Shown here piece by piece: positions 4,925 through 50,373 of a DNA stretch of 64,000 nt. The stretch spans positions 7,457 through 71,456 of the forward strand of contig MGJB01000001.1 in assembly GCA_001794055.1 (NCBI GenBank). Direction: 5' to 3'. The number at the start of each line of letters is the position of its first letter. Within the stretch, counting starts at the first letter, position 1. The DNA is from Candidatus Yanofskybacteria bacterium RIFCSPHIGHO2_01_FULL_41_26. GTDB taxonomy: Bacteria; Patescibacteriota; Minisyncoccia; 2-02-FULL-40-12; GWA2-44-9. Position numbers and translations under genes: made by a program. The notes beneath the pieces are model-generated. The model searched no databases. It was not told the DNA's origin and saw only the letters and a program-made list of their open reading frames with translations.

Positions 4925-5125
4925 ACCCTCACCCATTTCCGACCTATTGGATTGCGCCTCCGGTCTTCTTCGGACAAATGCTTAAGTTAATCTCAATTCA
5001 GTTAACAAATTTGGTTACCCCGTCGCAAGTTCCGACTCAAATTTGTTGAATGAACTGAATTATCAATCAATTTAAGCATTATGTTACCCTCGAAACCAAA
5101 CGGTCTGAAATGGGCTAGGTTTCGC
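4925..5125 (+). repeat. Repeat family D copy 1: ~200-nt structured element (long hairpin gcttaaNttaatctcaat...caaattt / aaatttgtt...attaatttaagc) closed by a copy-specific outer stem
   Basis: Aligns with copies at 29497-29770 and 42074-42280. The outer stem here is cccatttccgacc / ggtctgaaatggg. Confidence 0.7.
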
Positions 5126-5147
5126 TTAAATTATTTTAAGCAACCAG

Positions 5148-5312
5148 CCCGCATACCCTCAGGGAGAACTTGCGCAGGCATTTCGGCTTGCCCCCACACT
5201 CATGCATGAGTGTGGGGGCTTGGTTCTTTGAAATGCCGAGCATGGAGATGGCCGAGGCTCGCAGGAAGCCGAGGACTATCGGTCGAGTCGGGGGTATGTG
5301 GCTGGGAGGAGC
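5148..5312 (-). repeat. Repeat family B (MITE-like, 15-bp terminal inverted repeats cccagccacataccc / gggtatgtggctggg), minus orientation, with an internal 28-nt perfect palindrome insertion
   Basis: Reverse complement aligns with B copies at 15987-16123 and 62964-63099. The extra palindrome cccccacactcatgcatgagtgtggggg sits in the central loop. Confidence 0.7.
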
Positions 5313-5862: not shown

Positions 5863-5965
5863 GAAATAAGTTCCAGGCCAAAGAAGAACGTTCGCAGGCG
5901 GGTAGCCGAGAGAGAGCAAAAACCCAGCAGGGTTTTATGCGGTCTTCGTGGTCTGGGACTTATTT
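5863..5965 (+). repeat. Repeat family A copy 1 (~100 nt). Conserved core aagaagaacgttcg...ccgagatagagcaaaaa[ccc]agcag[ggg]ttttatgcggtct, closed by copy-specific outer stem gaaataagttccaggcca / tggtctgggacttatttc
   Basis: Six copies in the window (5863, 15263, 19397, 50200 rev, 51114, 57057). The inner stem covaries: ccc/ggg, ttc/gaa, ctc/gag. Confidence 0.75.
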
Positions 5966-5967
5966 CT

Positions 5968-15029: not shown

Positions 15030-15064
15030 CTTCTCGCTCCTGCCTGATCATTTTTCAGACTTGC

Positions 15065-15247
15065 TCCCCAGCCACATACCCCCCGACTCGACCGATAGTC
15101 CTCAGTTTCAAAAGCTCAACCCTAACCCATTCTCGGGCACGGCATAAATTCTTGCTAGAATTTTGCCTCGTACTCGTTCCAGTCGAACTCCGTAAGTCCC
15201 TCTAATGGGTTAGGGTTTCGCTTTTTAGTTTTAAGTATGTGGCTGAG
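15065..15247 (+). repeat. Interrupted repeat B (5' end 15065-15102, 3' TIR remnant 15233-15247) with repeat C inserted between the halves
   Basis: ccccagccacataccccccgactcgaccgatagtcctc matches the B 5' end, and aagtatgtggctgag matches the B 3' TIR. The intervening 15110-15221 is the reverse complement of C (copy at 63121-63227). Confidence 0.6.
15110..15221 (-). repeat. Repeat family C (~110 nt, TIRs gaaaccctaacccatt / aatgggttagggtt), minus orientation, nested in a B copy
   Basis: Near-identical reverse complement of 63121-63227. Confidence 0.7.
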
Positions 15248-15262
15248 ACCTTAAATATCGTA

Positions 15263-15371
15263 AGCGAACGCCTTATTCCAAAGAAGAACGTTCGGAGGCT
15301 ACCCCGGGCCGAGATAGAGCAAAAACCCAGCAGGGTTTTATGCGGTCTGATTTGGGATGAGGCGTTCGCGA
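15263..15371 (+). repeat. Repeat family A copy 2, outer stem gcgaacgcc / ggcgttcgc
   Basis: Core identical to other A copies. Marks the left edge of the 15.05-19.5 kb island. Confidence 0.75.
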
Positions 15372-15390
15372 TTAAACAGCCATAAAAGAT

Positions 15391-15907: not shown

Positions 15908-15986
15908 CCGGTGTCGTCGTGGAGGGGAAGGGGGCAATGGTGTCCCACCCCTCTTTTTTTGATTCTTAAAAGTCCGAGTCTCTCTT

Positions 15987-16123
15987 CCCCAGCCACATAC
16001 CCCCGACTCGACCGATAGTCCTCGGCTTCCTGCGAGCCTCGGCTGTCTTCATGCTCAGCCCCTCACCAAGCACCAAGCTTCGGGGCCTGCGCAAGTTCTC
16101 CCTGGGAGTATGTGGGCTTGGGA
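15987..16123 (+). repeat. Repeat family B, intact copy
   Basis: TIRs cccagccacataccc ... tatgtgggcttggg. Internal hairpin ggcctgcgcaag. Confidence 0.7.
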
Positions 16124-16198
16124 AGCTTTTAATTTTTTAAAATAGCATAAAAATTTTGGAATTGTTGACAAGTTTTATGTGGCTGATATTATTTATCT

Positions 16199-19314: not shown

Positions 19315-19396
19315 TTCAAACTAAGCCCGGCATTTGCCGGCAACCCCGCATCTCGCTGGGCCTTTTATTTATTTAAAGTTTAAAAAATTGGAGAGC

Positions 19397-19492
19397 GAGG
19401 CCTTGTCTCAAAGAAGAACGTTCGGAGGCCGACGGGCCGAGATAGAACAAAAACTCAGCAGAGTTTTATGTGGTCTGATTTGGGATAAGGCC
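19397..19492 (+). repeat. Repeat family A copy 3 (variant core aaaactcagcagagtttt), outer stem ggccttgtctca / tgggataaggcc
   Basis: Same orientation as the copy at 15263. Together they bracket the 15.3-19.5 kb island. Confidence 0.7.
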
Positions 19493-19539
19493 GAGTGACA
19501 GGTTGTGTGAACCATTAAAATTAGTTATTATAAAAATAT

Positions 19540-20259: not shown

Positions 20260-20365
20260 TTTTGGATAAGTTTATGTTATAATTGAGAGCGAGGAGTAAA
20301 GCGTAAGCTTGCTTATGCTTTATCCGAGTGAACAAATTATACAAAGTATAATCTCTTAAACTAAA

Positions 20366-20475
20366 ACGCCGCTCGTTTGGCCAAATTCAAGGCAAAAGCG
20401 AGGATCGAACTGAGTCATAGATAGCTATGACGAAGGAGGACCGGAGCTTTTAACGAAGAAGTTGGTCAGAGCATT
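20366..20475 (+). ncRNA. Conserved structured 5' leader (copy 1) upstream of lon
   Basis: Aligns to 61726-61816. Shared ttggccaaattc...gaagttggtca closing helix. Internal hairpin covaries (gtcatag-atag-ctatgac vs aacatag-taaa-ctatgtt). Confidence 0.5.
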
Positions 20476-20524
20476 GCGTCCGGCCGTAAGTAATAGGCCG
20501 AGCAATGCGAACGAGCAAGTTTTT

Positions 20525-22855
20525 ATGGCTGATTTTAAAGCTAACAATATAATAATACCGGAACAACTTCCGCTTATAGCTCTCAAGAATACCGTCTTGT
20601 TTCCAAAAGTGGTTATTCCGCTTATAGTCCAAAGACCCAAATCAGTTGTCGCCCTTGAAGATGCTTTGGCTCATGAACGTCTTGTGTTTTTTGTTACTCA
20701 AAAAAACATCGAAGATAATATTGGCCGAAAAGACATCTTTACGGTGGGCACTATCGGCAGAATAGTTTCTGTTTTTAAACTGCCTGACGGATCTTCTAAG
20801 GTTGACGTGGAAGGGTTAGTCAGGGCGCGAATAACTGATTTTTTGAGCGAAGAACCATTCTTTAAAGTTAAGACCGAACCGTTTAATTTGATCACGAGAA
20901 ACAACCTTGAGGAAAAGGCGTTTTTGAGGCGGGCAATAGAGCAATTTAGAACCATTTCGGAAGCGCGCACCTTTCCGACTATATTGCCGGAAATTATTTA
21001 TATGATGCTTCAACTTAAAGACACCGAGCAGATATTAAGTCTGATGACGATTAATTTAAATCTAGGGATAGAAGATCAGCAAAGCATACTTGAATTAGAA
21101 AGTGCGATAGATTCTTTGAGGGAGATGAATGTTTTTCTTGTCCGCGAGATGGAGATAATGGAGGCGGAGAAGACTGTTACCAAAGAAACCAAAAAACAAA
21201 TCGGCAAAATGCAAAAAGAGCTTTTTTTGAGAGAGCAATTGAAAAGCATTGAAAAGGAGTTGGGCGTGGAAGATGAAAAAGATGAAGTGGATACGTTGAA
21301 ATCTAAGATCATTTCGGCAGGAATGCCAAAGAGCATTGAAGAAAAAGCCGTTAAGGAATTAAATCGTCTCGGCAAAATGCCGCCTTTCAATCCGGAGGTT
21401 TCATATTTGAGAACTTATCTTGATTTGCTTACTGAGTTGCCCTGGTCAAAAAAGACCAAAGAAAAAATAGATCTGAAAGAAGCGGAAAAAATACTAAATG
21501 AAGACCACTACGGACTCAATAAAGTTAAAGAAAGAATTCTGGAATACCTTGCTGTGCAAAAACAAGTCGGCAAATTGAAAGGGCCGATACTGTGTCTTGT
21601 CGGACCTCCCGGTACCGGGAAAACATCTATCGGCCAGTCTATCGCCAGGGCTTTAGGTCGTAAATTTATCCGGGTTTCTCTCGGCGGGTTGAGGGACGAA
21701 GCGGAAATTAGGGGCCATCGCCGAACCTACGTCGGGGCTATGCCGGGAAGAATTATTCAGGGAATTCATAATTCTAAAGTTAGAAATCCGGTGTTTATGC
21801 TGGATGAAATAGACAAGATTGGCATGGATTTCCGTGGCGATCCGTCCTCGGCTCTTCTGGAAGCATTGGATCCCCAGCAGAATCATTCTTTCTCCGATCA
21901 TTATTTAGAAGTGCCTTACGATCTTTCCGATGTCATGTTTATCACGACTGCTAATGTTTTGGATACGATTCCACCGGCCTTGAGAGATCGTCTTGAAATT
22001 ATAGAATTTCCAGGATATTCGGAGGATGAAAAATTCCATATTGCCAAAAATTTTCTTTTACCGAAGTTGTTTAAAGACCATGGTTTAAAGAAAAAAGTTT
22101 TGGTTTTTACTGATTCAGCGCTTGAGGATATTATAAGAAACCATACCCGTGAGGCCGGAGTCAGAGAGTTAGAGAGGCAATTGGCTTCGGTTATCAGGAA
22201 AATAACTCGAAAATTAGTTGAGTCTCATTCAAGCAAACAGATTGTTATAAACAAAAAAGACATCCATAAATATCTGGGTCCGGTTAAATATACCCATCAA
22301 CTGGCGGAAACCAAAGACGAAATCGGAGTTGTGACTGGTCTTGGTTGGACTCCGGTTGGCGGCGAAGTGTTTTTTATTGAGGTTTCCAAAATGCCCGGCC
22401 GGGGAAAACTTATTTTAACCGGCCAGTTGGGTTCAGTAATGAAAGAGTCTGCTCAGGCCGGTTTAAGCTATGCCAGAACGTTTGCCGCAAAGAAAGGCAT
22501 TAAAGAGGATTTCACTAAAGACGATATTCATATTCATGTTCCTTCGGGAGCGATAAAAAAAGACGGTCCTTCCGCCGGAACGGCTATGACCACGGCGTTG
22601 GTGTCATTATTTTTGGGAAAACCGGTTAGAAAAGAAGTTGCCATGACGGGCGAAGTTACTTTGCGCGGGAAAGTTCTTGAAATAGGCGGACTTAAAGAAA
22701 AGGTTCTTGCCGCTCATCGTGCTGGAATAAAAATCATTGTCGCTCCCAATGATAACAAGAAAGACCTAGAGGATGTTCCTAAAGAAGTCAAAAAAGACCT
22801 CAAATTTGTATTTGTCAAAACCATGGATGAGGTCTTGCAAGTTGCCTTGAAGTAG
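20525..22855 (+). CDS. lon: ATP-dependent Lon protease
   Basis: N-terminal LON domain, AAA+ Walker A GPPGTGKTS, and C-terminal protease with catalytic PKDGPSAG. Start set at MADFKANN (ATG 20525). Confidence 0.95.
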   Translation: MADFKANNIIIPEQLPLIALKNTVLFPKVVIPLIVQRPKSVVALEDALAHERLVFFVTQKNIEDNIGRKDIFTVGTIGRIVSVFKLPDGSSKVDVEGLVRARITDFLSEEPFFKVKTEPFNLITRNNLEEKAFLRRAIEQFRTISEARTFPTILPEIIYMMLQLKDTEQILSLMTINLNLGIEDQQSILELESAIDSLREMNVFLVREMEIMEAEKTVTKETKKQIGKMQKELFLREQLKSIEKELGVEDEKDEVDTLKSKIISAGMPKSIEEKAVKELNRLGKMPPFNPEVSYLRTYLDLLTELPWSKKTKEKIDLKEAEKILNEDHYGLNKVKERILEYLAVQKQVGKLKGPILCLVGPPGTGKTSIGQSIARALGRKFIRVSLGGLRDEAEIRGHRRTYVGAMPGRIIQGIHNSKVRNPVFMLDEIDKIGMDFRGDPSSALLEALDPQQNHSFSDHYLEVPYDLSDVMFITTANVLDTIPPALRDRLEIIEFPGYSEDEKFHIAKNFLLPKLFKDHGLKKKVLVFTDSALEDIIRNHTREAGVRELERQLASVIRKITRKLVESHSSKQIVINKKDIHKYLGPVKYTHQLAETKDEIGVVTGLGWTPVGGEVFFIEVSKMPGRGKLILTGQLGSVMKESAQAGLSYARTFAAKKGIKEDFTKDDIHIHVPSGAIKKDGPSAGTAMTTALVSLFLGKPVRKEVAMTGEVTLRGKVLEIGGLKEKVLAAHRAGIKIIVAPNDNKKDLEDVPKEVKKDLKFVFVKTMDEVLQVALK

Positions 22856-26094: not shown

Positions 26095-26207
26095 TTGACG
26101 AATCGAGGAGGGAGCTGGGGTTGATTGAATATGTATTCCAAAATAATAGGTCGAGCGCCGAGCATCTCGCGAGGAGGCAAGCGTGGGTTACCTGTTATTT
26201 TGGTAAA
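26095..26207 (+). repeat. Repeat family E copy 1 (ttgacgaRtcgagg..ttccaaaataataggtcgagcgccgagc..gcgaggaggcaagYgWgggttaYcTgttat)
   Basis: Copy 2 at 30012-30177 carries two extra hairpin insertions. Both copies lie upstream of + strand envelope/secreted protein genes. Confidence 0.55.
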
Positions 26208-26293
26208 TACATACCAATCATACTGAAGCGTATGACGAAATGAGGAACCGTGACCAAATTTGGCATGGGGTGAGCTAATGATATAATCATCTC

Positions 26294-27646
26294 ATGGTGT
26301 TTGTGAGAAAATTCGAACAATTTTTATTTTATTTTCTGCTTTTTGCAATTCCGTTTCAGACGCGGAAGATTTTGTGGCATCAAAATTGGAATTTTAATGA
26401 GTGGCAGTCGATATCTATCTACGGTACGGATATTTTATTACTCATTCTTTTCGGATTCTGGATTTTTGACTTAATTAATCCGAAGATAGAGCCACCTGTG
26501 GATAACCGACTTCGCAAGTCGGTTATCCACAGGTTTGTTAAGAGACATGATTACTTTTTGTTTGTCTTGATTGTCGTCTCAGCTATTTCGATTAAAAACT
26601 CTTCCAGCTATATTCTAAGCACCTATAGTGTTTTGAAACTCGTAGAATTTGTTGTCTTTTATTTCTATATCAAAAGTTATGCGGTTTATAAGTTCGGCTT
26701 GATAAGGTCAATGATTGTTTTGATTTACGGAGGATTATTTCAGGCGATAATTGCTATTCTGCAGTTTTTTAAACAATCAAGTTTAGGTTTAGGATTGTTG
26801 GGGGAAAGTGTTATTAGTCCCAATCTGACCGGCATTGCTTCTTTTTATAATATGGCGGGAGAAAAGATAATCCGCACCTATGGAACGACGCCCCACCCTA
26901 ATGTTTTGGCCGGATATTTATTTTTGGCAATTTTTGCTTTTTATTATCTCTGGATTTATAAAAACATAAGCAAGTTTTTCTTGCTTATGTATGGATTAAT
27001 TATTTTGGCTTTCTTTTTTACTTTTGCCCGGGTAGCAGTATTTCTTTTGTTTATAAATTTTCTAGTTAGAATCATTTTAGTGCATTTAAAATTTAAGAAA
27101 GAATACTGGAATAAGAAGTTAGCTTTACTGTCCGTAGTAACGGTTGTTGTTGCTACATCTCTCTTTTTGATTTATTGGTCCGAGACGGTCAGTCGGGTTA
27201 TGATTTCTTCCAAAGAAGAGGCGGTTCAAATGAGGATTTTTTACAATAAGGAATCTTTGAGTTCCTTGAACTGGTTTGGTGTCGGTTCGGGTAACTTTGT
27301 CAATTGGCTTATGGTCAAAGATCCCAATTTACCGCGTAATCTTTATCAACCGGTGCACAATATCTACCTCTTGGTTTATTCGGAAACGGGAATTTTGGGC
27401 ATCTCTGCTTTCCTCATGTTTCTGTTGTTTTTGATCAAAGATTTTGTATTGCGGACACGCATGAAAAATCTTTATAACTATTCGTTTCTTCTTATCTTTC
27501 TCTCGGTTTTATTTATGGGACTTTTTGACCATTTTTTGTTGACGCTTCAGCAGGGGAGGTTTATTTTTTGGTTAACAGTTATGCTCTTGACTATTAATCG
27601 CAAAGATGATATAATGATTAAACAACAGTCAGAACCGACCGCATAG
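26294..27646 (+). CDS. O-antigen ligase / Wzy-like polymerase family membrane protein
   Basis: ~12 TM helices with the HNIYLLVYSETGILG motif of the O-antigen ligase family. Carries the in-frame palindromic insert at 26499-26537. Confidence 0.65.
   Translation: MVFVRKFEQFLFYFLLFAIPFQTRKILWHQNWNFNEWQSISIYGTDILLLILFGFWIFDLINPKIEPPVDNRLRKSVIHRFVKRHDYFLFVLIVVSAISIKNSSSYILSTYSVLKLVEFVVFYFYIKSYAVYKFGLIRSMIVLIYGGLFQAIIAILQFFKQSSLGLGLLGESVISPNLTGIASFYNMAGEKIIRTYGTTPHPNVLAGYLFLAIFAFYYLWIYKNISKFFLLMYGLIILAFFFTFARVAVFLLFINFLVRIILVHLKFKKEYWNKKLALLSVVTVVVATSLFLIYWSETVSRVMISSKEEAVQMRIFYNKESLSSLNWFGVGSGNFVNWLMVKDPNLPRNLYQPVHNIYLLVYSETGILGISAFLMFLLFLIKDFVLRTRMKNLYNYSFLLIFLSVLFMGLFDHFLLTLQQGRFIFWLTVMLLTINRKDDIMIKQQSEPTA
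26499..26537. repeat. 39-nt perfect hairpin made of two inverted DnaA-box-like 9-mers (cTGTGGATAAccgacttcgcaagtcggTTATCCACAg), in frame inside a CDS
   Basis: Identical stem at 50374-50412 with the loop inverted. Encodes PVDNRLRKSVIHR in the host ORF. Confidence 0.65.
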
Positions 27647-29496: not shown

Positions 29497-29770
29497 CCCG
29501 CCCCCATTCTCGGCCTGTTGGATTACGGCCTCCGGATCTCCTGGAGGCGATTCCAGGGCTGGCTAAAGCACAGCCCTAAAACCTTCTCCTTGACGGACAA
29601 ATGCTTAAACTAACCTTCAATTTGCTTAACAAATTTAAGCATCCGTTCCTCCCCGCCAGCTGGCGGGGATTTTCCGGCTAAGATTTATTGAATAAGCAGA
29701 TTATCAATTAATTTGAGTATTATGTTACCCTCGAAACCAAAAGGTCTTAAATAAGCGGGCTTTGCTTGTT
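29497..29770 (+). repeat. Repeat family D copy 2 (central loop replaced by hairpin cctccccgccagctggcggggatt)
   Basis: Aligns with 4925-5125 and 42074-42280. Located directly after the DedA stop codon. Confidence 0.7.
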
Positions 29771-30011: not shown

Positions 30012-30177
30012 TTGACGAGGTGAGGAAACAGGTTAGGTTGATTGATCCGCCATCCGCCAACTGGCGGAGGCGGATTGATTTCCAAAATAATAGGTCGAGC
30101 GCCGAGCCGCCAGCCTGTCTGCGATAGTCAAGCAATAGGCTGGCGTAGCGAGGAGGCAAGTGAGGGTTATCTTGTTA
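30012..30177 (+). repeat. Repeat family E copy 2 with two hairpin insertions
   Basis: Shares ttccaaaataataggtcgagcgccgagc and agcgaggaggcaagtgagggttatcttgttat with copy 1. Confidence 0.55.
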
Positions 30178-30211
30178 TAGCTGCAAACGAAGACAAATGT
30201 AAGCTTTACTT

Positions 30212-30251
30212 AAATTTTGTCCGAGTGGGGCAGATATACAACGTATTTTGG
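30212..30251 (+). repeat. Repeat family F copy 1 (ttttgtccgagYg..atatacaacgtattt)
   Basis: Second copy at 42911-42949. Confidence 0.45.
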
Positions 30252-30378
30252 CTTTAAATCAATTTAATTATACCGAATCTGTTCCCCGGAGACGAGGAAC
30301 CGTGGCAGAAAAGTGATGGGGCGGAGCTCTGGCCTGTGGATTGCCATGTTGAGGTGGATTTGGTACAATTAATCCTAC

Positions 30379-31602: not shown

Positions 31603-31872
31603 GTCAGATAATTAATCCATTTTATCAGTTTAGCGGAGCGGATTTTAGCCAAATCCGAGACGCGAGGATGAAGCTGTAGATTATTCTACTGCGAGTCCGA
31701 GTAACGAAGGATTTGGTCTAAAATCAGCCCGCCCTAAGAGGGAAGCTAAATAACAAGACCGATTCTTTCGTCTCTCCTCCTCAATATAGAACAATCTATA
31801 TCTTCGTCGTTCCTCGGACTCGGTCTATTCTTTAGCTTCTAAAATGATAAAATGGATTAATTATCTGACCCA
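31603..31872. repeat. 270-bp intergenic element bounded by 24-bp perfect inverted repeats (tcagataattaatccattttatca / tgataaaatggattaattatctga) with nested internal hairpins
   Basis: IRs abut the protease stop and the start of the next gene. The interior has no ORF and at least 5 nested stem pairs. Confidence 0.6.
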
Positions 31873-38754: not shown

Positions 38755-38811
38755 GACCACTTCGGTGGTCTTTTGTTTGGAAAATAATTGTTATTAAGGT
38801 AAAATTACTAT

Positions 38812-39951
38812 GTGGCGAATTATAGAATCTTACTTCTCGGGGGTGGCAGCGGGGGGCATGTTTTTCCGCTGGTTGCTGTTGCCAATGCTTTGAAAGAAAA
38901 ATCCGAACAAAATGGAATTTCTTTAGAGTTGATGATTTTGGGAGAAGGTAAATTTATAGCAAAAGCGGCAACGGATGCGGGATTAAATTTTCAATCGATA
39001 TTAGCCGGCAAACTAAGAAGATATTTCAGTCTTTTAAATGTTCTAGATATTTTTAAAGTTCTGATAGGATTTTTTCAGGCTCTTTGGCATATATTTTGGT
39101 TTATGCCTGATGTGGTCTTTGCCAAAGGCGGATATGCGTCTTTGTCTGGCGCATTTGTGGCGAAGCTTTATTTCATTCCTTTGTTTGTTCACGAATCGGA
39201 TTCAATCCCTGGTCTTGCCAATAGGATTTTAGGCAGATTGGCAAAGACCGTTTTTATTTCTTTCGCATCTAGTGATAAATATTTTAAAACCGGCAAGACA
39301 GTTTTAACGGGAAATCCTGTCCGGAAAGAATTGGTTTCAGGTGACAAATCGACTGGTATCCAAAGTTTCGGTTTAAACCCGAACCTCAAAACAGTTTTGG
39401 TTTTGGGGGGCAGCCAAGGCGCGCAAAGAATTAACCAAATCGTTTTGGAATCTATTGTTTTAATGACAAAGGAATTTCAGGTCATCCACCAATGCGGGGA
39501 ATCTCAACACAAGGCGGTTAAAGCGGAAGAGGATAAAATTATAAAAGAAGGCCAAGGTGAATATTCCGATACTGTGAAAATGAATTATAAACTCTATCCA
39601 TTTTTCAGCGAGAAAGAACTGGCGATGGCCTATGCCGTGTCGGATGTAATTGTTTCTCGCGCCGGAGCCGGTTCGCTTTTTGAGATTGCTGCACTCGGCA
39701 AACCGGCTATTTTGATACCTCTTTCCACTAATGCTAGTCGCGGTGAGCAAATTACCAATGCTCTTGAATTTTCAAAATTCGGAGCATCAATGATCGAAGA
39801 GGAAAATCTTACGCCCCACATTCTAATCAACCAGATAAATTCTTTGCTTCAGCCTGAAAAATATAATACTGTAAGCCAAAATTTAAAAACTCTTGCTATG
39901 CCTGACGCAGCGGAAAAAATTGCCTTAGTATTATTGACATCGCAGAGCTAA
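38812..39951 (+). CDS. murG: Undecaprenyldiphospho-muramoylpentapeptide beta-N-acetylglucosaminyltransferase
   Basis: N-terminal GGGSGGHVFPLVAVANAL motif and GT-B two-domain architecture. Confidence 0.9.
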   Translation: MANYRILLLGGGSGGHVFPLVAVANALKEKSEQNGISLELMILGEGKFIAKAATDAGLNFQSILAGKLRRYFSLLNVLDIFKVLIGFFQALWHIFWFMPDVVFAKGGYASLSGAFVAKLYFIPLFVHESDSIPGLANRILGRLAKTVFISFASSDKYFKTGKTVLTGNPVRKELVSGDKSTGIQSFGLNPNLKTVLVLGGSQGAQRINQIVLESIVLMTKEFQVIHQCGESQHKAVKAEEDKIIKEGQGEYSDTVKMNYKLYPFFSEKELAMAYAVSDVIVSRAGAGSLFEIAALGKPAILIPLSTNASRGEQITNALEFSKFGASMIEEENLTPHILINQINSLLQPEKYNTVSQNLKTLAMPDAAEKIALVLLTSQS

Positions 39952-39966
39952 TGCTAATATTATTTT

Positions 39967-40698
39967 ATGAACTGGAAGACGATCGGTTTTGATAAAAATA
40001 AAAAGTATTTTCTAGATGCCATTAAAAACGGCAATTTATCGCACGCTTATATTTTTTGCGGACCTGACGGTATCGGTAAGAAGTTATTTGCTTATGATTT
40101 ATTTAGTTTTATAAATCAACGGGAGCCAGAAGGCGACCCGGATTTTAAATTGCTTACTCCTCGTTTGGAGGATGATGAAACTAAAATATACATTGAAGAT
40201 GTCAGGAATCTTAAATCCTACTTATCTTTGAAATCCTACCGTGGCCCGTACAAGTTTGTAGTTATAAACGATGCTGACCGATTGGTTCCTGAAGCTGCCA
40301 ATGCCTTTTTGAAAATATTGGAAGAGCCGTCGCTGTTCACGGTAATTATTTTGGTTAGTTCTCAACCCAAATTAATTCTTCCGACAGTTCTATCTCGATG
40401 CGAGAAAGTGCAATTTTTGCCTCCCGAAGAAAAAACCATTAACAAAGAAACGGCCAAAGCCGTAGCCGAGTTTATAAGTATAGCGAGGCAAGGAATAACC
40501 GAACGTATGCAATATGCCGAAAAGCTATTTGCCGATAAAAATTACCAAAATCTTGTCATCGGCTTGATTCATACTATTCGGTCGCGGGAAAATCCGAACC
40601 ATAAAGTTTTAAAAAATCTCCTCAAACTAAATTCCCTTCTCTCTCGGCCTCAATTCAACCACCGCCTAGCCCTCGAAAATTTCCTTATCAATCTTTAA
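39967..40698 (+). CDS. holB: DNA polymerase III delta' subunit-like clamp-loader AAA+ protein
   Basis: HAYIFCGPDGIGKKLFA P-loop-like motif and SRC-like ...SRCEKVQF. Confidence 0.7.
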   Translation: MNWKTIGFDKNKKYFLDAIKNGNLSHAYIFCGPDGIGKKLFAYDLFSFINQREPEGDPDFKLLTPRLEDDETKIYIEDVRNLKSYLSLKSYRGPYKFVVINDADRLVPEAANAFLKILEEPSLFTVIILVSSQPKLILPTVLSRCEKVQFLPPEEKTINKETAKAVAEFISIARQGITERMQYAEKLFADKNYQNLVIGLIHTIRSRENPNHKVLKNLLKLNSLLSRPQFNHRLALENFLINL

Positions 40699-40771
40699 CT
40701 CGCTCGGGGTGGGCACATTTTCAGCCTGTTCCAAAACTCGCTCCCATCCAATCCCTCTCTTCATCACATCT

Positions 40772-40878
40772 CCGCGATACGACAAAAGAGCTGACGGATG
40801 TACGGAAATTACCATGAGCGCTTCGCTATAATGGTAATTTCCTATCCGTCAGCTTCTTTATGTTACCGTATCGCTGCG
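40772..40878. repeat. Hairpin-closed element: ~25-bp stem-loop (agctgacggatgtacggaaattaccat / atggtaatttcctatccgtcagct) inside outer stem gcgatacg / cgtatcgc. D-like 3' motif tatgttacc
   Basis: Architecture parallels family D (outer stem, long hairpin, tatgttacc). Confidence 0.45.
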
Positions 40879-40999
40879 AGGAGTGATTCAGATAGGGATA
40901 TGGCTGGAAGTTTAGTTTGAAAGATAAATCTGCTTGCCTTTACTTTTTCGATAATTTGCTCTATTATTTTAGGCAGGTCTTTTTATCGGAGGATTTTTC

Positions 41000-41194
41000 A
41001 TGATGATTTTCTTCGCGATTATATTGATATCAATGGGTATTGCTGGGCTACTTGAATATGTCAGGCCCGTCAGGCCTAGTGAGAACTCTTATGATAATGC
41101 CCTGCAGAAATATTTGAAAGCTTGCCGAACAACGATTAGGGCTGATTTGAAAAGGTCATTAATTAAACTCTGTGGCAGAAATAAGACCCCTTGA
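41000..41194 (+). CDS. Hypothetical small membrane protein
   Basis: RBS atcggagga then ATGATG. One TM. Terminator aagaccccttgaataaggggtTTTTATTT. Confidence 0.35.
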   Translation: MMIFFAIILISMGIAGLLEYVRPVRPSENSYDNALQKYLKACRTTIRADLKRSLIKLCGRNKTP

Positions 41195-41308
41195 ATAAGG
41201 GGTTTTTATTTATCGCGAACACCCCACCCCACCTTCTCATCTTTTAAGCAAACTTATCCAGGACGATGAATCAGGTGGGATGGGGTATTCGCTCGACATA
41301 AAGCAATC

Positions 41309-41466
41309 ATCGCCAATCTCTCTGATATCACTCCACGTAGCAATGGGCTAAACAAAACAGGGGTCGAATGAGTAAATATGCGAAATAGCGAAGCGCTCTC
41401 GCATATTTATGAAATGAGACCCCATTTTGTTCGCATTGCGGAGTTGTGATAGAAGAGAGGTTGGCG
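41309..41466. repeat. ~155-nt long imperfect palindrome (rod-like element of 4 nested helices) immediately upstream of frr, preceded by a 20-bp-stem hairpin at 41213-41295
   Basis: Left arm catcgccaatctctc-tgatatcac-...-aaatatgcga mirrors the right arm tcgcatattt-...-gtgataga-gagaggttggcgatg. Confidence 0.55.
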
Positions 41467-41516
41467 ATGGATGCGGAGACGTTGTTTAGAGAAAAATTAT
41501 ATGCTAATATTTTTTT

Positions 41517-42071
41517 ATGTATAAAGACCACATAAGCCAGAAAAAAAAGGAGTTTGATGTCGCTGTTGAGCATGTCAAAAATGAGATAGCTGGAATAAGA
41601 ACCGGCCGGGCCCATGTTTCCATGGTTGAAGATATTGTCGTGGATTATATGGACTCCAAGTTCAGGATTAGAGAATTAGCAACTATTAATATTCCTGAAC
41701 CGCGGACACTTCTCATCCAACCGTGGGACAAACAGGCTATTCCTAATATTGTAAAAAGCATTAAAGAAAGTTCCTTGGGTTTAAACCCTATTGATGACGC
41801 CACCGGCATTAGGTTGAATATTCCGCCATTAACGGAAGAACGCCGGCTGGAATTTATCAAATTACTTCATCAGAAAATTGAATGGGGGAAGGTAAGAGTC
41901 AGACAAATTCGGGAAGATGTATTAAAGAAAGTCCAGGCTGAAGTCAAAGAAAAGAAGGCCCGGGAAGATGATTTGTTTAAAGCCAAAGAAGAACTTCAAA
42001 AAATCATAAACGACCTCAATCGTATCTTTGACAATATGACCAAGAAAAAAGAACAGGAATTGATGTCGTAA
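41517..42071 (+). CDS. frr: Ribosome recycling factor
   Basis: 184 aa. The MYKDHISQKKKEFDVAVEHVKNEIAGIRTGRA start is typical of RRF. Confidence 0.9.
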   Translation: MYKDHISQKKKEFDVAVEHVKNEIAGIRTGRAHVSMVEDIVVDYMDSKFRIRELATINIPEPRTLLIQPWDKQAIPNIVKSIKESSLGLNPIDDATGIRLNIPPLTEERRLEFIKLLHQKIEWGKVRVRQIREDVLKKVQAEVKEKKAREDDLFKAKEELQKIINDLNRIFDNMTKKKEQELMS

Positions 42072-42073
42072 AA

Positions 42074-42280
42074 AGCGAAGGCCTGAATCATTTTCTCACC
42101 GTTGACTTTCTTCGGACAAATGCTTAAATTAATCTCAATTTGCTTAACAAATTTTAGCATCCGTTCCTCCCTAAGGGGATTTTCCGGCTAAAATTTGTTG
42201 ATTAAGCAAATTATCAATTAATTTAAGCATTGTGTTACCCTCGAAACCAATAGGTTCTAAAATGACTAAGGCCTTCGCTT
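42074..42280 (+). repeat. Repeat family D copy 3, outer stem aagcgaaggcct / aggccttcgctt
   Basis: Aligns with D1 and D2. The central loop hairpin is cctccctaaggggatt. Confidence 0.7.
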
Positions 42281-42301
42281 TAAAATCATTAAATCATATT
42301 A

Positions 42302-42811
42302 ATGAGTATTGAAAGTCTAAGTAAAATAGAACGAGGCAAGGAAACTTTAATGAATCTTGAGAAAGAAGGGCTTTATGTTTTTCACGGTTCAACGGAGTTG
42401 ATACAAGAATTAGAACCACGCCAGGCAAAGGTTTGGAATAAAGACAAAAAAGAAATGGTTGCACACGGAGAGCCGTCAGTAGTTGCAACACCATTTGCAG
42501 AAATTGCAATATTCAGGGCTATTATAAGTAACAAGATAAAATCCAATGACGGAAAGCATTACAGTTCTTTTGGCTCTGATGGACATAAACCATTTTTTGA
42601 AACCACTCTCAAGATATTGGAACAGGCCAAAGATGTTGTGGGCTATGTTTATGTTTTTAAAAAAGAAGATTTTACTAAACTTAGTCCGATGGAGTGGAGA
42701 TCAAACAAGAAGCTCAAACCCGTTCGGACTTTTGAAGTGCATTTTCAAGATTTGCCAGAAAATATCAAACTTGAGCCAAGAAACAGTGAAGATGTCTCTT
42801 TAAAATTGTAA
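42302..42811 (+). CDS. Hypothetical protein
   Basis: 169-aa ORF bracketed by two hairpin-closed repeat elements that share the aagcgaaggcc outer stem. Confidence 0.45.
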   Translation: MSIESLSKIERGKETLMNLEKEGLYVFHGSTELIQELEPRQAKVWNKDKKEMVAHGEPSVVATPFAEIAIFRAIISNKIKSNDGKHYSSFGSDGHKPFFETTLKILEQAKDVVGYVYVFKKEDFTKLSPMEWRSNKKLKPVRTFEVHFQDLPENIKLEPRNSEDVSLKL

Positions 42812-42821
42812 GCGAAGGCCA

Positions 42822-43097
42822 CTGTTATTTTCTCGCAAACTGCACGTTTGGCAACTATTTCAGGAGCTCTGACGCTATAATTATGAGTGAGGAGCAAAAT
42901 GATTGAAAATCATTTTGTCCGAGCGAGTTAAATATACAACGTATTTCTCTGGGTACCGACCCGAGGATGTCGAAAACGGCCCAAAGGGCCGCATGGTTCG
43001 ACAGGAGTTGCTTCGGGCGGTCAGATAAATTAGGAAGAATTTCTAGAAATAGTCCAAGAGGAAGCCGTGAGAAAATGGCAGCGGCTTCGCTTTTAAC
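42822..43097. repeat. Hairpin-closed element (outer stem aagcgaaggcca / gcggcttcgctt) containing repeat F copy 2 (42911-42949)
   Basis: Same outer-stem sequence as D copy 3 on the other side of the ORF. Confidence 0.5.
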
Positions 43098-43134
43098 TTT
43101 GAATTTTCAGATTTTAGTTATAATATAGAGACAC

Positions 43135-44217
43135 ATGATAACTGCAGTAATCTTTATTATAGTTCTGGGGGTGCTGGTTTTTATCCACGAGTTTGGGCAT
43201 TTTATTTTTGCCAAAAGAGCCGGAATGAAAGTGGAAGAATTCGGTTTTGGTTTCCCGCCTCGGATTTGGGGCATCAGAAAGGGTGAAACACTATACTCCG
43301 TGAACGCAATTCCCTTCGGCGGATTTGTGAAAATTTTAGGCGAAGGAGGAGAAGAAGCAAATAATCCAAGAAGTTTTTCTTCCAAACCGACTGGTTTGCG
43401 GCTCAAAGTAATTATCGCCGGAGTGACGATGAATTTCTTTTTGGCAGTTGTTCTTTTGATGGTTACCAATTTTTTTGGGTTAAGAATAGGATTAATTGAT
43501 GATAAGACAGCGACAATTGCTAAAGACAAGCAAGTTCAAATAATTGAAGTTTCTAAAGATAGTCCGGCGGATAAGGCGGACATCAAGCTTCTTGATGAGG
43601 TCACAGGTTTTAAATTAAACGGTTTTTTCAAAGCGGTTTCTAGCGCGGAAGATGTCCAAGCTTTTATAAATGAAAATGCTGGAAAAACCTTGATCGTGGT
43701 TGTTCAAAGAAATAGAGAAATATTAGAAAAAGAAATTGTGCCAAGAGTGAATCCTCCGGCTGGACAGGGCGCATTGGGGGTTTCTTTGGCTCTCACGGGG
43801 GTCGTTTCTTATCCGTGGTATGAAGCGGTCTGGAGAGGTGTATATGATGCGGTTATCCTTACGATGAATACCGTTATCGGGTATTTTATGCTTTTCAAAA
43901 TGCTTTTGTTAAAAGGTAAATTAATTGCCGACGTTTCGGGCCCTGTCGGCATAGCTACTCTTACTGGTCAAGCCGCAAGAATGGGGATAAATTACCTGAT
44001 GCAGTTTACGGCGATGATATCCATCAATTTGGCGGTACTGAACATTATTCCATTTCCAGCCTTGGACGGAGGCAGGGCTTTGCTTATAATTGTAGAGAAG
44101 CTCAAAGGTTCGCCAATGAACAAAAAAGCCGAACAATTGGTAAATGCCATCGGCTTCGCGTTTCTTGTTGCATTGATGGTGTATGTGACCACTAAAGACA
44201 TAATCCGATTTTTTTGA
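43135..44217 (+). CDS. rseP: Site-2 protease RseP-like M50 zinc metalloprotease with PDZ domain
   Basis: HEFGHFIFAK (HExxH) in TM1 and the LDGG motif near the C-terminus. Confidence 0.85.
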   Translation: MITAVIFIIVLGVLVFIHEFGHFIFAKRAGMKVEEFGFGFPPRIWGIRKGETLYSVNAIPFGGFVKILGEGGEEANNPRSFSSKPTGLRLKVIIAGVTMNFFLAVVLLMVTNFFGLRIGLIDDKTATIAKDKQVQIIEVSKDSPADKADIKLLDEVTGFKLNGFFKAVSSAEDVQAFINENAGKTLIVVVQRNREILEKEIVPRVNPPAGQGALGVSLALTGVVSYPWYEAVWRGVYDAVILTMNTVIGYFMLFKMLLLKGKLIADVSGPVGIATLTGQAARMGINYLMQFTAMISINLAVLNIIPFPALDGGRALLIIVEKLKGSPMNKKAEQLVNAIGFAFLVALMVYVTTKDIIRFF

Positions 44218-44244
44218 AAAATCATAATTTCTAATTTCTAAACA

Positions 44245-45471
44245 ATGAAGCTATCTAAATTATTTACCAAAACACTTCGGGAGGCGCCAAGCGATGAGAC
44301 GGCAAAAAATGCCCGGCTTTTAATTCGGGGCGGATTTGTTTCAAAAGTTATGGCCGGCGTGTATGAATATCTGCCTTTTGGCTTGAGGGTGCTTAATAAA
44401 ATTAATAATATTATTCGTGAAGAAATGGATGTGGTTGGCGGACAAGAATTAAATATGTCTGTTTTCCAGAATAAAGAAATTTGGCAGGCAACAGGACGTT
44501 GGGATTCTGCCAAAGAGGTGATGTATCAATTTAAAGATAATTTTAATAAAGACCAGGGACTCGGTTTTACCCACGAGGAACCGATTGCTGCGACAGCTCG
44601 CCACTTTATTAGTTCGTACAAAGATCTTCCAAAGGCGGTTTATCAAATTCAGACTAAATTTAGAAATGAAGCTCGCGCTAAATCTGGCTTATTGAGAGGG
44701 CGGGAATTCCTGATGAAAGATCTTTATAGTTTTCATGCCGACCAAAATGATTTGGACGAATATTATGAGAAAGTTGCCGACGCATACTCGCGTATTTTTG
44801 AAAGGGTCGGTGTAAGCGCCGTTCGGACATTTGCTTCCGGTGGTTTGTTTTCCAAATATTCTGATGAATTTCAAGTGGTTGCGGATATCGGAGAGGATAC
44901 TATTTACGTAAATGAAAAGGAAAACAGGGCAGTTAATAAAGAAGTTTACAACGAAGATGTATTGGCCGATTTGAAGTGGAACAAGAGTAACCTTACGGAA
45001 AGATCATCGATTGAAGTTGGAAATATTTTTAAATTGGGAACAAAATTTTCTGAACCCCTCGGCCTTACATATACAGACGCCGACGGTAACTTAAGACCTG
45101 TTATTATGGCTTCATATGGTATTGGTCCGGGAAGACTGATGGGAACGGTTGTTGAAGTGTCTTGTGATGAGGAAGGAATTATCTGGCCGGAAAACATTGC
45201 GCCCTATAAGGTTCATTTGATCTCTTTGGAACAAAACAAAAAGGCGGATAAAGTTTATGACGATTTGGCAAATTCCGGCGCTGAGGTTCTATACGATGAC
45301 CGGGAAGACAAAACCGCGGGAGAAAAATTTGCCGATGCCGATCTTATCGGCTGTCCAATTAGAATTGTCGTTAGCAAAAAAACTCTTGAAAAAGAGAGCG
45401 TTGAACTCAAGCTCCGCAACGAAAAAGATTTCAAACTCGTTAAGTTGTCCGATATTTCTCAATCTTTATAG
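44245..45471 (+). CDS. proS: Prolyl-tRNA synthetase, compact form lacking the editing/insertion domain
   Basis: Conserved N-terminal block MKLSKLFTKTLREAPSDETAKNARLLIRGGFVSKVMAGVYEYLPFGLRVLNKINNIIREEM, class II motifs, and a C-terminal anticodon-binding domain. Confidence 0.8.
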   Translation: MKLSKLFTKTLREAPSDETAKNARLLIRGGFVSKVMAGVYEYLPFGLRVLNKINNIIREEMDVVGGQELNMSVFQNKEIWQATGRWDSAKEVMYQFKDNFNKDQGLGFTHEEPIAATARHFISSYKDLPKAVYQIQTKFRNEARAKSGLLRGREFLMKDLYSFHADQNDLDEYYEKVADAYSRIFERVGVSAVRTFASGGLFSKYSDEFQVVADIGEDTIYVNEKENRAVNKEVYNEDVLADLKWNKSNLTERSSIEVGNIFKLGTKFSEPLGLTYTDADGNLRPVIMASYGIGPGRLMGTVVEVSCDEEGIIWPENIAPYKVHLISLEQNKKADKVYDDLANSGAEVLYDDREDKTAGEKFADADLIGCPIRIVVSKKTLEKESVELKLRNEKDFKLVKLSDISQSL

Positions 45472-45547
45472 AGCTCATGCCTCCTTAAGATTTCTACTAC
45501 GATTTTTGTTTTTGATTGTTTATATTAATTCTGATATGTTTTAACCA

Positions 45548-46600
45548 ATGTTCAACAAGCTGTTTGGTTTTTGGTCAAAAGACATTGGAATTGATCTGGG
45601 TACGGCAAATACCCTGGTTTATGTTCGAGGAAAAGGAATTGTAATCAATGAACCGTCAATTGTGGCAGTGAACCAAAAAACCGGCAAAATACTTGCTATT
45701 GGCAAAGAAGCCAGAACAATGGTTGGCCGGACGCCGGGATATATTACAGTTTCTCGACCCTTGATCAATGGGGTTGTTTCCGACTTTGAAGTGACTGAAC
45801 AGATGCTCAAGTATTTTATAGATAAAGTTCATCGAGAGGGTTTTGTTTTATTGCCTCGGCCAAGAGTGGTTGTGGGAATTCCTTCGGGAGTGACGGAAGT
45901 GGAAAAAAGGGCCGTTGAAGATGCTACTTACAACGCCGGCGCGAGAGAAGTTTATCTTATTGAAGAGCCGATGGCAGCAGCTATTGGAGCTCGTCTGCCT
46001 GTTCACGAAGCGGTAGCCAATGTGATAGTTGACATGGGTGGCGGCACGACCGAGGTAGCCGTCATTTCTATGGGCGGTGTTATAGCTTCCCGTTCTTTGC
46101 GGGTTGCCGGAGACAAGCTCAATGAAGACATTGTTAGATATTTACGAGAAGAAAGAAATCTTTTGGTTGGAGAATCTACGGCAGAAAACTTGAAATTAAC
46201 ATTGGGTTCGGCTCATCCTTCTGAAAAAGATGAGGAAGACGGCTTTGTGAGGGGCAGAGATTTGGTCTCTGGCTTACCTAAAGAAATATCTATAACCTCG
46301 GAAGAGGTTAGGGAAGCGATGCAGCGTTCCGTAAAAAGTATTGTTCTCGCCGTTAAAAATACGATCGAGGAAACCCCTCCTGAATTAACAGCTGACTTGA
46401 TAAATAGATTTATATTTCTTGCCGGAGGCGGGGCACTTTTGAAGGGTTTGGATAAAATAATAGCTCATGAAACGAAGTTGTTTGTAAAAATAGTGGATGA
46501 TCCCTTAACCGCTGTTGCGAGGGGTTGCGGTTTTGTGCTTGAAAATGTCGACCAACTAAAAAATGTTCTGGTTGCCACCCAAAAAGACGACTATTTTTAA
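45548..46600 (+). CDS. mreB: Rod shape-determining protein MreB
   Basis: Actin-fold motifs DLGTANT, VVGIPSG and DMGGGTTEVA. Confidence 0.95.
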   Translation: MFNKLFGFWSKDIGIDLGTANTLVYVRGKGIVINEPSIVAVNQKTGKILAIGKEARTMVGRTPGYITVSRPLINGVVSDFEVTEQMLKYFIDKVHREGFVLLPRPRVVVGIPSGVTEVEKRAVEDATYNAGAREVYLIEEPMAAAIGARLPVHEAVANVIVDMGGGTTEVAVISMGGVIASRSLRVAGDKLNEDIVRYLREERNLLVGESTAENLKLTLGSAHPSEKDEEDGFVRGRDLVSGLPKEISITSEEVREAMQRSVKSIVLAVKNTIEETPPELTADLINRFIFLAGGGALLKGLDKIIAHETKLFVKIVDDPLTAVARGCGFVLENVDQLKNVLVATQKDDYF

Positions 46601-46603
46601 TTA

Positions 46604-47395: not shown

Positions 47396-47398
47396 AAA

Positions 47399-47761: not shown

Positions 47762-47762
47762 A

Positions 47763-49688: not shown

Positions 49689-49739
49689 ATTAAATCGTAA
49701 GTTGTAGTATACTTTTCTAATTAAATTTTAATTAAAGCT

Positions 49740-50198: not shown

Positions 50199-50199
50199 T

Positions 50200-50303
50200 C
50201 GCGAACGCCTCATCCCAAATCAGACCGCATAAAACCCTGTTGGGTTTTTGCTCTCTCTCGACTACCCACCTGCGAACGTTCTTCTTTGGAATAAAGCGTT
50301 CGC
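50200..50303 (-). repeat. Repeat family A copy 4 (minus orientation), outer stem gcgaacgcctcatccca / tggaataaagcgttcgc
   Basis: Reverse complement of the A core. Inverted relative to the copy at 51114, bracketing cassette P2. Confidence 0.75.
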
Positions 50304-50373
50304 TATGATATAAATTAATAAGCATGAAAAATAGGCCCCGTTGCGGGGCCTTTTGGCGTCTCTTTTCGTTTGC

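Follow-up and report, generated by a model that had tools for sequence, protein, structure and literature searches.

What stands directly upstream of the lon gene of Candidatus Yanofskybacteria bacterium RIFCSPHIGHO2_01_FULL_41_26, and why does a similar segment precede, in the same contig, the gene for an acidic protein of 97 amino acids (aa)? Both segments lie in a stretch of 64,000 nucleotides (nt) of contig MGJB01000001.1 that was analyzed as a whole (hereafter, the window), and a preliminary description made from its letters had taken them for a common cis-regulatory RNA or operator, plausibly of a stress or heat-shock regulon. Bacteria of the candidate phyla radiation (CPR) have tiny genomes, few recognisable regulators and a poorly understood initiation of translation. 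The observation is real: the element that the two segments share represents a family of structured RNAs that is not in the catalogues, unusual in its placement and rapid in its turnover. As to its nature, the reading that we favor, with about as much confidence as doubt, is that the segments are paralogous copies of a multi-copy structured RNA leader present in Candidatus Yanofskybacteria and related CPR bacteria.

The homology between the two segments was analyzed by comparing the window with itself. By blastn, positions 20356-20474 aligned with 61716-61835 over 120 nt with 79% identity (E 2e-21), and a MAFFT alignment of the two copies gave a mean column identity of 82% across around 190 nt, supporting that both segments are present and homologous from end to end, as had been described, with the correction that in the second one the similarity ends near 61835 and not at 61816. 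Weaker similarity continues past a second hairpin to a GCAAGTT(N3-6)ATG junction common to both copies. The 21-mer TTTTAACGAAGAAGTTGGTCA occurs exactly twice in the window, once in each copy, with 0 occurrences expected from 100 shuffles. The long hairpin is the core of the segment of around 110 nt given at first; the full element is longer, around 165 nt, because an outer helix (P0) pairs its 5' end with the bases just before the ATG, in such a way that copy 1 spans 20362-20524 and copy 2 spans 61721-61885. A search of the 64-kb window with a hairpin-only covariance model (R2), with the filters off, returned nothing beyond these two full copies and two mini-hairpins. No second copy was found 3' of lon or of the 97-aa gene, the copies being dispersed singly.

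When folded separately, each copy adopts the same long irregular hairpin as its minimum-free-energy structure, with z-scores of -4.7 (copy 1) and -5.9 (copy 2) for the 110-nt segments, and of -6.4 and -6.1, respectively, for 150-nt stretches that include the second hairpin. The helices proposed from the letters were recovered in the minimum-free-energy folds of both copies, namely the closing helix UUGGCCAA/UUGGUCA plus UUC/GAA, and the internal hairpin that reads GUCAUAG/CUAUGAC in one copy and AACAUAG/CUAUGUU in the other, and the further hairpin and the GCAAGTT..ATG junction are likewise present in both. Between the two copies, 7 base pairs differ by double, pair-preserving changes.

All the parts of both copies lie on the + strand. 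In copy 1, the 5' strand of P0 (UAAAAC .. GCUCG, 20362-20375) pairs with 20512-20524 in the RNAalifold consensus and in the covariance-model alignment, and these P0 pairs covary across the family. It is followed by the long irregular hairpin (20376-20470; 100.9 bits with R2), made of helices P1, P1b, P2, P3 and P4 with conserved purine-rich internal loops, by hairpin P5 (GCAUUGC..CGGCC loop GGCCG..GCAAUGC, 20471-20508), placed by the fold and by the position of P5 in the family, and by the 3' strand of P0 (CGAGC AA GUUUUU, 20512-20524), whose last base directly precedes the ATG of lon (20525-22855, + strand). This gene encodes 776 aa with the Pfam domains Lon_C, LON_substr_bdg, AAA and Lon_lid. 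In copy 2 the order is the same, with the 5' strand of P0 (UUAGAAC gua GCUGG, 61721-61735) placed by the covariance model, the long hairpin P1-P4 at 61736-61831 (109.1 bits with R2), P5 (CAU A CUGCC .. GGCAG A GCG, 61833-61870) placed by the fold and the covariance-model alignment, and the 3' strand of P0 (CCGGC AA GUUAUAA, 61872-61885) stopping 2 nt short of the ATG at 61888. The gene that follows (61888-62181, + strand) encodes the 97-aa acidic protein, which matches no Pfam family and belongs to a lineage-specific family of small proteins.

The search for further copies was carried out in metagenomes with the exact 18-mer TTTTAACGAAGAAGTTGG, which returned 103 stretches from groundwater samples (Ga0209515/41/42, Hainich ERZ12926xx and OBEQ01), around 64 of them containing full-length homologues. 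An alignment of 37 distinct copies (A2) was used to build the covariance model R1, which scores the window copies at 134.2 bits (copy 1) and 176.8 bits (copy 2) and yields 55 matches in 50 sources, with scores from 54.6 to 198 bits. These correspond to around 55 distinct relatives, whose downstream genes are given below, and one of the matches (L222 14381-14585) lacks the 18-mer used as seed. A 16-mer scan of viral contigs gave 44 matches, all of them seed-only chance matches. With respect to known families, Rfam 15, thermosensor and riboswitch models included, gave no match at gathering thresholds across the 64-kb window and none to either window copy at E<=10 with lax filters. At five other loci searched at E<=1 the elements were also unmatched, and only tRNAs and one sub-threshold chance match were detected elsewhere in them. 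Full-text searches of the literature on structured RNAs of CPR bacteria (Patescibacteria) found no description of the element.

The consensus obtained with RNAalifold on A2 is a three-way junction in which P0 closes the long hairpin P1-P4 and P5. P0 consists of two blocks with a small internal loop between them: AAC/GUU, which can be extended to UAGAAC/GUUAUA, and GCUGG/CCAGC (GCUGGC/GCCAGC). By way of P0, the leader is closed from its 5' end onto the 12-16 nt directly before the AUG, the 3' strand of the helix ending 0-8 nt before the start codon. In the long hairpin, of around 95 nt, short helices that covary freely alternate with nearly invariant internal loops (RAGGC opposite AACGAA, GAGCAU opposite GCGGAG, and GA opposite GA); the junction (GAGCGU.., ..GAGCGG) is nearly invariant too. 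P5 is a GC-rich hairpin of variable sequence in which pairing is kept, and P4 also varies freely in sequence and stays paired. A typical member (L128) folded alone gave the same junction at -64 kcal/mol, with a z-score of -7.9. Variants of this architecture exist: in type 2 leaders a small CCYGAAAGG hairpin and another hairpin take the place of P5, and one variant copy carries a nested palindromic extension inside the element. In this copy (L190 870-1138, - strand), which precedes rpsU, the gene for ribosomal protein S21, and is followed 3' of P0 by a canonical GGAGG Shine-Dalgarno site, the long hairpin carries a symmetrical insertion, a palindromic extension of around 95 nt (UACAGAG..ACCGUGCUUUAGCC..). 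The motif ACCGUGCUUUAGC was found again in L224 and L227, a recurrence that suggests that pieces of RNA are shuffled as modules.

With the structure fixed, 95.9% of the cells of the alignment are paired, versus 33-49% when the partners are slid by 1-3 columns, and double, pair-preserving changes are seen at 25 of the 45 pairs, versus 4-9 in the slid controls; none of 500 column shuffles reached the observed values. Thus, the covariation across CPR homologues supports the pairing, and the further copies, around 55 distinct ones, keep the fold through compensatory changes, as expected from a similarity that goes beyond chance or a duplicated promoter. P1 alternates between CUUGGCCAA/UUGGCCAAG and CCCCGACAA/UUGGCGGGG, and P3 between UUCGAC/GAAGGAG, UUGCGAGG/GACGAGCAA and UUGAUUC/GAAUCAA. 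Among the paired cells there are 82 G-U or U-G against 8 A-C or C-A, and one U-G pair is conserved in 36 of the 37 sequences; therefore, the fold belongs to the sense strand. These data support the first half of the initial proposal, a conserved structured RNA of the sense strand, and speak against the second, an operator: the palindrome TTGGCCAA, put forward as a possible operator, is one strand of P1 and covaries away to CCCCGACAA, CTTAGACAA, CTTGACCAA and others.

Several motifs of the long hairpin were considered for other roles and discarded. GAAGGAG is not the Shine-Dalgarno site of a leader peptide, as it covaries with the opposite strand of P3 (e.g., UUGAUUC/GAAUCAA), and the ATG in P4 that could open an ORF (open reading frame) of 8 codons is missing from several copies. 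A K-turn at CGAAGAA was rejected on the grounds of the UUC/GAA pairing, backed by a compensatory change to UCC/GGA in a mini variant, and likenesses to the sarcin-ricin loop or to domain 5 of group II introns (GGACCGGAG, GAGCGUA) are limited to a subfamily or too short, and were taken as coincidence.

The placement of the element was studied in the high-scoring set, formed by the 37 distinct copies with at least 150 bits. In 35 of them an ATG that opens a real ORF lies 0-8 nt (mode 5) after AAGTT, and in all these 35 the orientation of the element is that of the downstream gene, convergent and divergent pairs on single contigs (L136, L204, L222) included. Among the weaker or divergent copies an ORF was abutted in only 8 out of 19. 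The downstream genes, identified by their N-termini and lengths, belong to more than 30 families. PolA, TypA/BipA, the ribosomal proteins L33 and L32, GreA and MreB have several copies each; other genes of translation and transcription are those for L36, L13, L17, S2, S16, S18, S21, NusG, NusA, EF-P and SerRS, and the rest include GroEL, a DnaJ-like protein, GAPDH, ParB, superoxide dismutase and several membrane or unknown proteins, in addition to Lon and the 97-aa protein in the window. The set is one of growth and housekeeping genes, in which ribosomal proteins and factors for transcription and translation abound.

This census bears directly on the stress or heat-shock regulon proposed at first, in which the element would be an RNA thermometer or a palindromic DNA operator. 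Lon, GroEL and the DnaJ-like gene are indeed among the downstream genes, and the outer part of P0 is A-U rich, as would suit a thermometer; these genes are nevertheless a minority, since most of the downstream genes are translation, transcription and other housekeeping genes and not heat-shock ones. In addition, pairing of a Shine-Dalgarno site is absent, no thermometer family of Rfam matches, TTGGCCAA is not conserved as a palindrome, the 82:8 asymmetry between G-U and A-C speaks against a double-stranded DNA operator, and lon is found in relatives without the element. This explanation is largely refuted by the census, and we consider it extremely improbable.

In relation to the transcription and translation signals around the copies, a -10-like hexamer was detected within 30 nt upstream in 14 out of 28 copies, versus 10.2 in shuffles, which is not significant, and its spacing is not fixed. 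In one case the element starts 13 nt past a tRNA gene. Nearly all copies lack a Shine-Dalgarno site in the interval up to the AUG; the S21 gene, with its own site after the leader, was mentioned above. The genes of the window in general show few Shine-Dalgarno sites and, in many cases, a TATAAT 6-10 nt before the ATG. TATAAT-like boxes are found before most first-in-operon genes (e.g., 37238, 43135, 19540, 26294 and 39967), and GGAGG Shine-Dalgarno-like sites chiefly before internal genes (10926 and 27666). This scarcity of Shine-Dalgarno sites, together with the TATAAT boxes close to the ATG, suggests that leaderless or near-leaderless mRNAs could be widespread, and because of both features a leader of 165-230 nt without a Shine-Dalgarno site is a special case here.

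On these bases, we favor a cis-acting RNA leader that affects translation or mRNA stability, a mechanism that we infer and to which we give no more belief than disbelief. The leader would act in cis, as RNA, on the gene it abuts. Once folded, P0 would hold the A/U-rich 12-16 nt that form the ribosome landing region beside the AUG, and perhaps the transcript's 5' end as well. The invariant loops and the junction would be the binding site of a trans-acting factor, a metabolite being less likely in this role than a protein, which would tune the initiation of translation and/or the decay of the mRNA, in such a way that scattered growth-related genes would come under one control. As to its spread, the pattern seen at orthologous genes, given below, is that of an element that moves as a module.

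The same geometry admits two other functions. The first is that of a processing or insulator signal, in which an RNase (RNase III on P0 stacked on P1, or an RNase Z/P-like enzyme) or the RNA itself would cut at the 3' side of P0 and release an mRNA starting at or next to the AUG, which would suit a mostly leaderless organism. It agrees with the many genes of the genome that look leaderless, with the end of the 3' strand of P0 at 0-8 nt from the AUG, with the polycistronic contexts, among them the copy that follows a tRNA gene and another one between co-oriented genes that are 24 nt apart in relatives, and with a conservation of loops and junction typical of catalytic or RNase-recognised RNAs. 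However, given that the distance from P0 to the AUG varies between 0 and 8 nt, a cut measured from the structure would not yield a uniform 5'-AUG; moreover, no known ribozyme family matches even at E<=10, and the rpsU copy is followed by its own Shine-Dalgarno site. We regard this function as quite unlikely. The second is that of a Shine-Dalgarno-independent enhancer of translation, in which the helix GCUGGC/GCCAGC (around -16 to -11) would dock at the position of the Shine-Dalgarno/anti-Shine-Dalgarno duplex or otherwise recruit the ribosome, and may also protect the 5' end of the mRNA. Such an enhancer would explain the recruitment of the element to highly expressed genes, and the enrichment for these genes, the nearly general lack of a Shine-Dalgarno site, a range of helix-to-AUG spacings that resembles that of Shine-Dalgarno sites and the tolerance of new insertions before essential genes all fit with it; still, the argument is one of geometry, GAAGGAG is part of a covarying helix and not a conserved Shine-Dalgarno site, and stand-alone copies exist, so that we hold it as very improbable.

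The evolutionary behavior of the leader was followed at orthologous genes. In a covariance-model and blastn search of 80 related genomes of GTDB, none showed a leader at lon. The nearest Lon in the GTDB set, with 78% aa identity, is that of a metagenome-assembled genome of Doudnabacteria, also a CPR lineage, and in the nearest genome lon has the same upstream gene and a spacer of around 35 nt carrying TTGATATAAT. The 97-aa protein is 100% identical to one of Candidatus Yanofskybacteria bacterium RIFCSPLOWO2_01_FULL. Its gene keeps the 187-nt spacer of the window at an orthologue with 98% identity, has a 24-nt spacer (ttttttaaaatcaattattaaaca) at orthologues with 93% identity, and spacers of 11-37 nt at nine loci where the orthologues are 59-90% identical. 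At filled and empty sites, the flanking sequences can be aligned up to ATTATT|AAACA, 4 nt before the ATG, and a TTA duplication at one filled/empty pair is an approximate fit only, not a clean one. As orthologues of both window genes are found in close relatives without the element, the idea that lon or the acidic-protein gene has long had a conserved leader was rejected, and the leader therefore behaves as a mobile cassette. Both window copies are recent arrivals, before lon and before the 97-aa gene.

At other genes the picture is different in part. The leader is kept at orthologous polA, typA, rpmG and rpmF, whose proteins are 68-95% identical. At greA and mreB, with proteins 87-91% identical, it is found in related contigs (L142, L167, L213 and L169) and not in the window, L142 being syntenic with window positions 38796-50188, and the greA leader is of type 1 in L142 and of type 2 in L167. 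These comparisons show a leader that persists at some genes, while at others it has been gained, lost or swapped.

Such a behavior brings in the possibility of selfish non-autonomous mobile DNA, of the MITE (miniature inverted-repeat transposable element), REP or PATE type, whose hairpins would be kept for a transposase, possibly on one DNA strand, with the RNA functionless and tolerated. This is an unlikely reading, though one with several observations on its side: the clean presence/absence between 93%- and 98%-identical orthologues with insertion between ATTATT and AAACA, the possible TTA target duplication, the gains and losses at greA and mreB with the two leader types at greA, the terminal arms TTAGAAC / TTATAAC that match at 6 of 7 positions, the presence in the window of at least three other structured repeat families, one of them (family A) in both orientations, and the nested palindromic insertion within one copy. 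It is opposed by the orientation of the element, which matches that of the gene and the abutted start codon in all 35 (of 37) copies with such a gene, by the long retention at polA, typA, rpmG and rpmF, and by paralogues that are 79% identical within one genome and show compensatory changes along a 95-nt hairpin, a structure that far exceeds what recognition of ends by a transposase needs. The invariant internal loops and the conserved U-G wobble pair also speak against it. Furthermore, no transposase gene was found near any copy, the sole Y1_Tnp gene lying on an element-free contig, and no consistent target-site duplication was found.

Between the two, a further reading considers the element as an orientation-locked mobile leader cassette that inserts just upstream of the start codons of highly expressed genes, its fold replacing Shine-Dalgarno initiation; we think it rather unlikely as such. 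A possible route would be the targeting of the single-stranded promoter/start region of leaderless genes, or of TTA sites there, and the fold would dock its intramolecular helix at the position of the Shine-Dalgarno duplex, or would be cut off to regenerate a leaderless mRNA. The readings are not fully exclusive, since a mobile leader cassette with an RNA function joins the cis-acting leader and the mobile element.

Several observations weigh against the cis-acting leader that we favor. The absence of the leader at lon in the 80 GTDB genomes is one of them, and in 107 kb of contigs of close relatives no leader copies were found at all; so scattered a presence and so fast a turnover are what one would expect of mobile DNA more than of a regulator. 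No single theme that would hint at a ligand runs through the downstream genes, and repression would be strange in a leader of highly expressed genes. Three divergent copies (L179, L153 and L162) are followed by no gene, that of L179 standing alone because it faces the end of a convergent gene. Neither are the two mini-hairpins of the window leaders. The first one (31643-31723, + strand) is a reduced version of the long hairpin in which P1, P1b and the internal loop GAG / AACGAAG persist and P2 is missing, and it adjoins no start codon; R1 scores it at 22.8 bits (E 1.2e-6, local search) and R2 at 34.9 bits, although its sequence was part of the R2 training set. The second one (31752-31829, - strand) forms an inverted pair with the first, inside the self-inverted repeat 31603-31869, and scores 12.4 bits with R1 and 29.2 bits with R2, of whose training set it was also part. 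Finally, collection through an exact 18-mer implies a narrow sampled diversity, with an effective sequence number of 1.77, and the invariance of the 18-mer across the collection is an artefact, because the copies were gathered by it.

The window holds other repeats and features. Family A, a structured repeat of around 100 nt, has six copies in the 64 kb, at 5866-5966 (+), 15262-15372 (+), 19396-19496 (+), 50198-50308 (-), 51119-51228 (+) and 57055-57160 (+), and further copies in L139. Its fold is that of two inner hairpins closed by a long stem, with compensatory changes at 12 of 35 predicted pairs; it has no Rfam match and, unlike the leader, appears in both orientations and often just past gene ends. 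Family B, of around 150 nt and 78-84% identity, has three copies (4966-5112, 29594-29752 and 42108-42264, all +), each just downstream of a + strand gene, the third one after the gene of the ribosome recycling factor and within an imperfect palindrome (42072-42281). Family C is found at 5120-5306 (-), 15052-15109 (+), 15986-16140 (+) and 62956-63114 (+), with a closing helix CCCAGCCACAUAC / GUAUGUGGGCUGGG and a stretch GCGCAAGUU reminiscent of the 3' strand of P0 of the leader; beside it, a 111-nt inverted repeat is common to two loci (15114-15224 vs 63228-63118, 94%).

A shared 5' module (module X; 20289-20351, 26136-26290, 30080-30375 and 42880-43110) begins with TATAAT followed by GAGNGAGGAG, a hairpin and UUUGUCCGAGNG..AUAUACAACGUAU, and later, in three cases, by a GAGGAACCGUG block. 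The long leaders with this module precede Lon (5' of the element studied here), a Wzy_C-like membrane protein, an S8 subtilase and an M50 (RseP-like) peptidase, and because three of the four genes encode proteases, the module may be a separate regulatory RNA. A 38-nt perfect palindrome (CCTGTGGATAACCGACTT..AAGTCGGTTATCCACAGG) with two inverted consensus DnaA boxes (TTATCCACA) is nearly identical at 26495-26532, inside the Wzy_C-like ORF as called, and at 50373-50410, at the start of a TTG-initiated ORF beside greA. The 97-aa gene forms part of a conserved cluster (window 60012-63681; loci L228-L237) with divergent PMT-type glycosyltransferases, a gene of around 515-615 aa without family, two small ORFs, a DUF8128/DUF87 (TrwB/VirB4-like) ATPase and GtrA; in one source, a homologue bears the label ESCRT-III/CdvB-like. 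Immediately 3' of the 97-aa gene, a near-perfect palindrome of 45 nt (ATACCCTCAAAAAACAGCC..GGCTGTTTTTTGAGGGTAT, 62238-62282) looks like a bidirectional terminator. Finally, a relative of Yanofskybacteria without the leader carries at L233 15019-15699 the Y1_Tnp gene referred to above, of 226 aa and of IS200/IS605 or RAYT type.

The interest of the family is that a well-supported RNA fold absent from Rfam heads genes for ribosomal proteins, elongation and transcription factors, chaperones, a protease, DNA polymerase I and cell shape. If regulatory, it would be a candidate for a global post-transcriptional growth switch in CPR bacteria; if mainly mobile, it would be an unusual repeat, of fixed orientation beside start codons and with an elaborate RNA structure still kept; and if the leader cassette were true, a transposable element would double in these bacteria as a portable device for translation initiation and regulation. 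In any case it is relevant to gene expression in CPR bacteria where the Shine-Dalgarno site is missing or the mRNA is leaderless, and to the way in which regulatory leaders pass from one gene to another, for which an RNA of around 165 nt with defined helices offers a testable handle.

The element was compared with known systems of structured leaders. As in T-box leaders and the abundant classes of riboswitches, a covarying RNA is found in the 5' leader of many genes per genome, always in sense, and its presence at orthologues varies between species. In contrast to them, it has no terminator/antiterminator, no sequestration of a Shine-Dalgarno site and no metabolic theme, and its turnover is much faster, differing between 93%- and 98%-identical orthologues. 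A T-box leader was discarded by the lack of any match to the T-box family of Rfam and by the presence of one aminoacyl-tRNA synthetase (SerRS) among more than 30 gene families. With riboswitches it shares an aptamer-like fold backed by covariation. As for an expression platform, no terminator and no alternative fold were found; P0, beside the AUG, is the sole candidate, and occlusion is possible in that its 3' strand covers around -16 to -1; the gene set, on the other hand, is broad and not the coherent one that would point to a ligand. RNA thermometers and cspA-type 5' untranslated regions are also long and structured, with pairing near the start codon, and precede some chaperone or protease genes, whereas the leader is far more elaborate and conserved in sequence than ROSE, fourU or cspA-like elements and precedes mostly non-stress genes. 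A thermometer was rejected since there is no Shine-Dalgarno site near the AUG, the consensus AUG lies outside P0 and P0 has a stable GC block of 5-6 bp. The autoregulatory leaders of ribosomal proteins resemble it in preceding many ribosomal-protein genes and in purine-rich internal loops of the kind recognised by proteins, but each known one is specific of an operon and mimics one rRNA site, while here a single leader is found before nine or more different genes for ribosomal proteins and before many others.

Among mobile and recombining elements, the attC sites of integrons (the sedentary chromosomal ones, e.g., the Vibrio cholerae repeats) have, like the leader, a 5' end in ..AAC, a 3' end in GTT.. 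and an imperfect fold with two paired boxes and a small unpaired spacer, and lie just upstream of the next ORF. This identity was discarded: there are neither cassette arrays nor an integrase, the downstream genes are core housekeeping ones, TTAGAAC and GTTATAA fit the cores RYYYAAC / GTTRRRY only in the AAC and GTT triplets, and the strand that folds is the top (sense) one, whereas attC recombination uses the bottom strand. REP/BIME and IS200/IS605-derived elements are short palindromes (20-40 nt), often clustered, while the leader is much larger and unclustered, and neither the window nor any of the loci with the element showed a gene for a Y1 (RAYT/TnpA) transposase. The transcribed MITEs (Correia of Neisseria, ERIC of enterobacteria, and BOX/RUP of pneumococcus) are closer, with around 100-170 nt, many copies, long hairpins, imperfect terminal complementarity, co-transcription with neighbours and presence/absence polymorphism between close strains. 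However, MITEs appear in both orientations and at variable distances from genes, with clear terminal inverted repeats and target-site duplications and little covariation that preserves structure, whereas the leader is locked in orientation, abuts the ATG and covaries strongly; insertion in either orientation is not what was found, 35 of the 37 high-scoring copies being in sense and next to the ATG, with no copy in antisense. In its function the element is most like the multi-copy cis-regulatory leaders, and in its evolution most like the transcribed MITEs, being a member of neither group.

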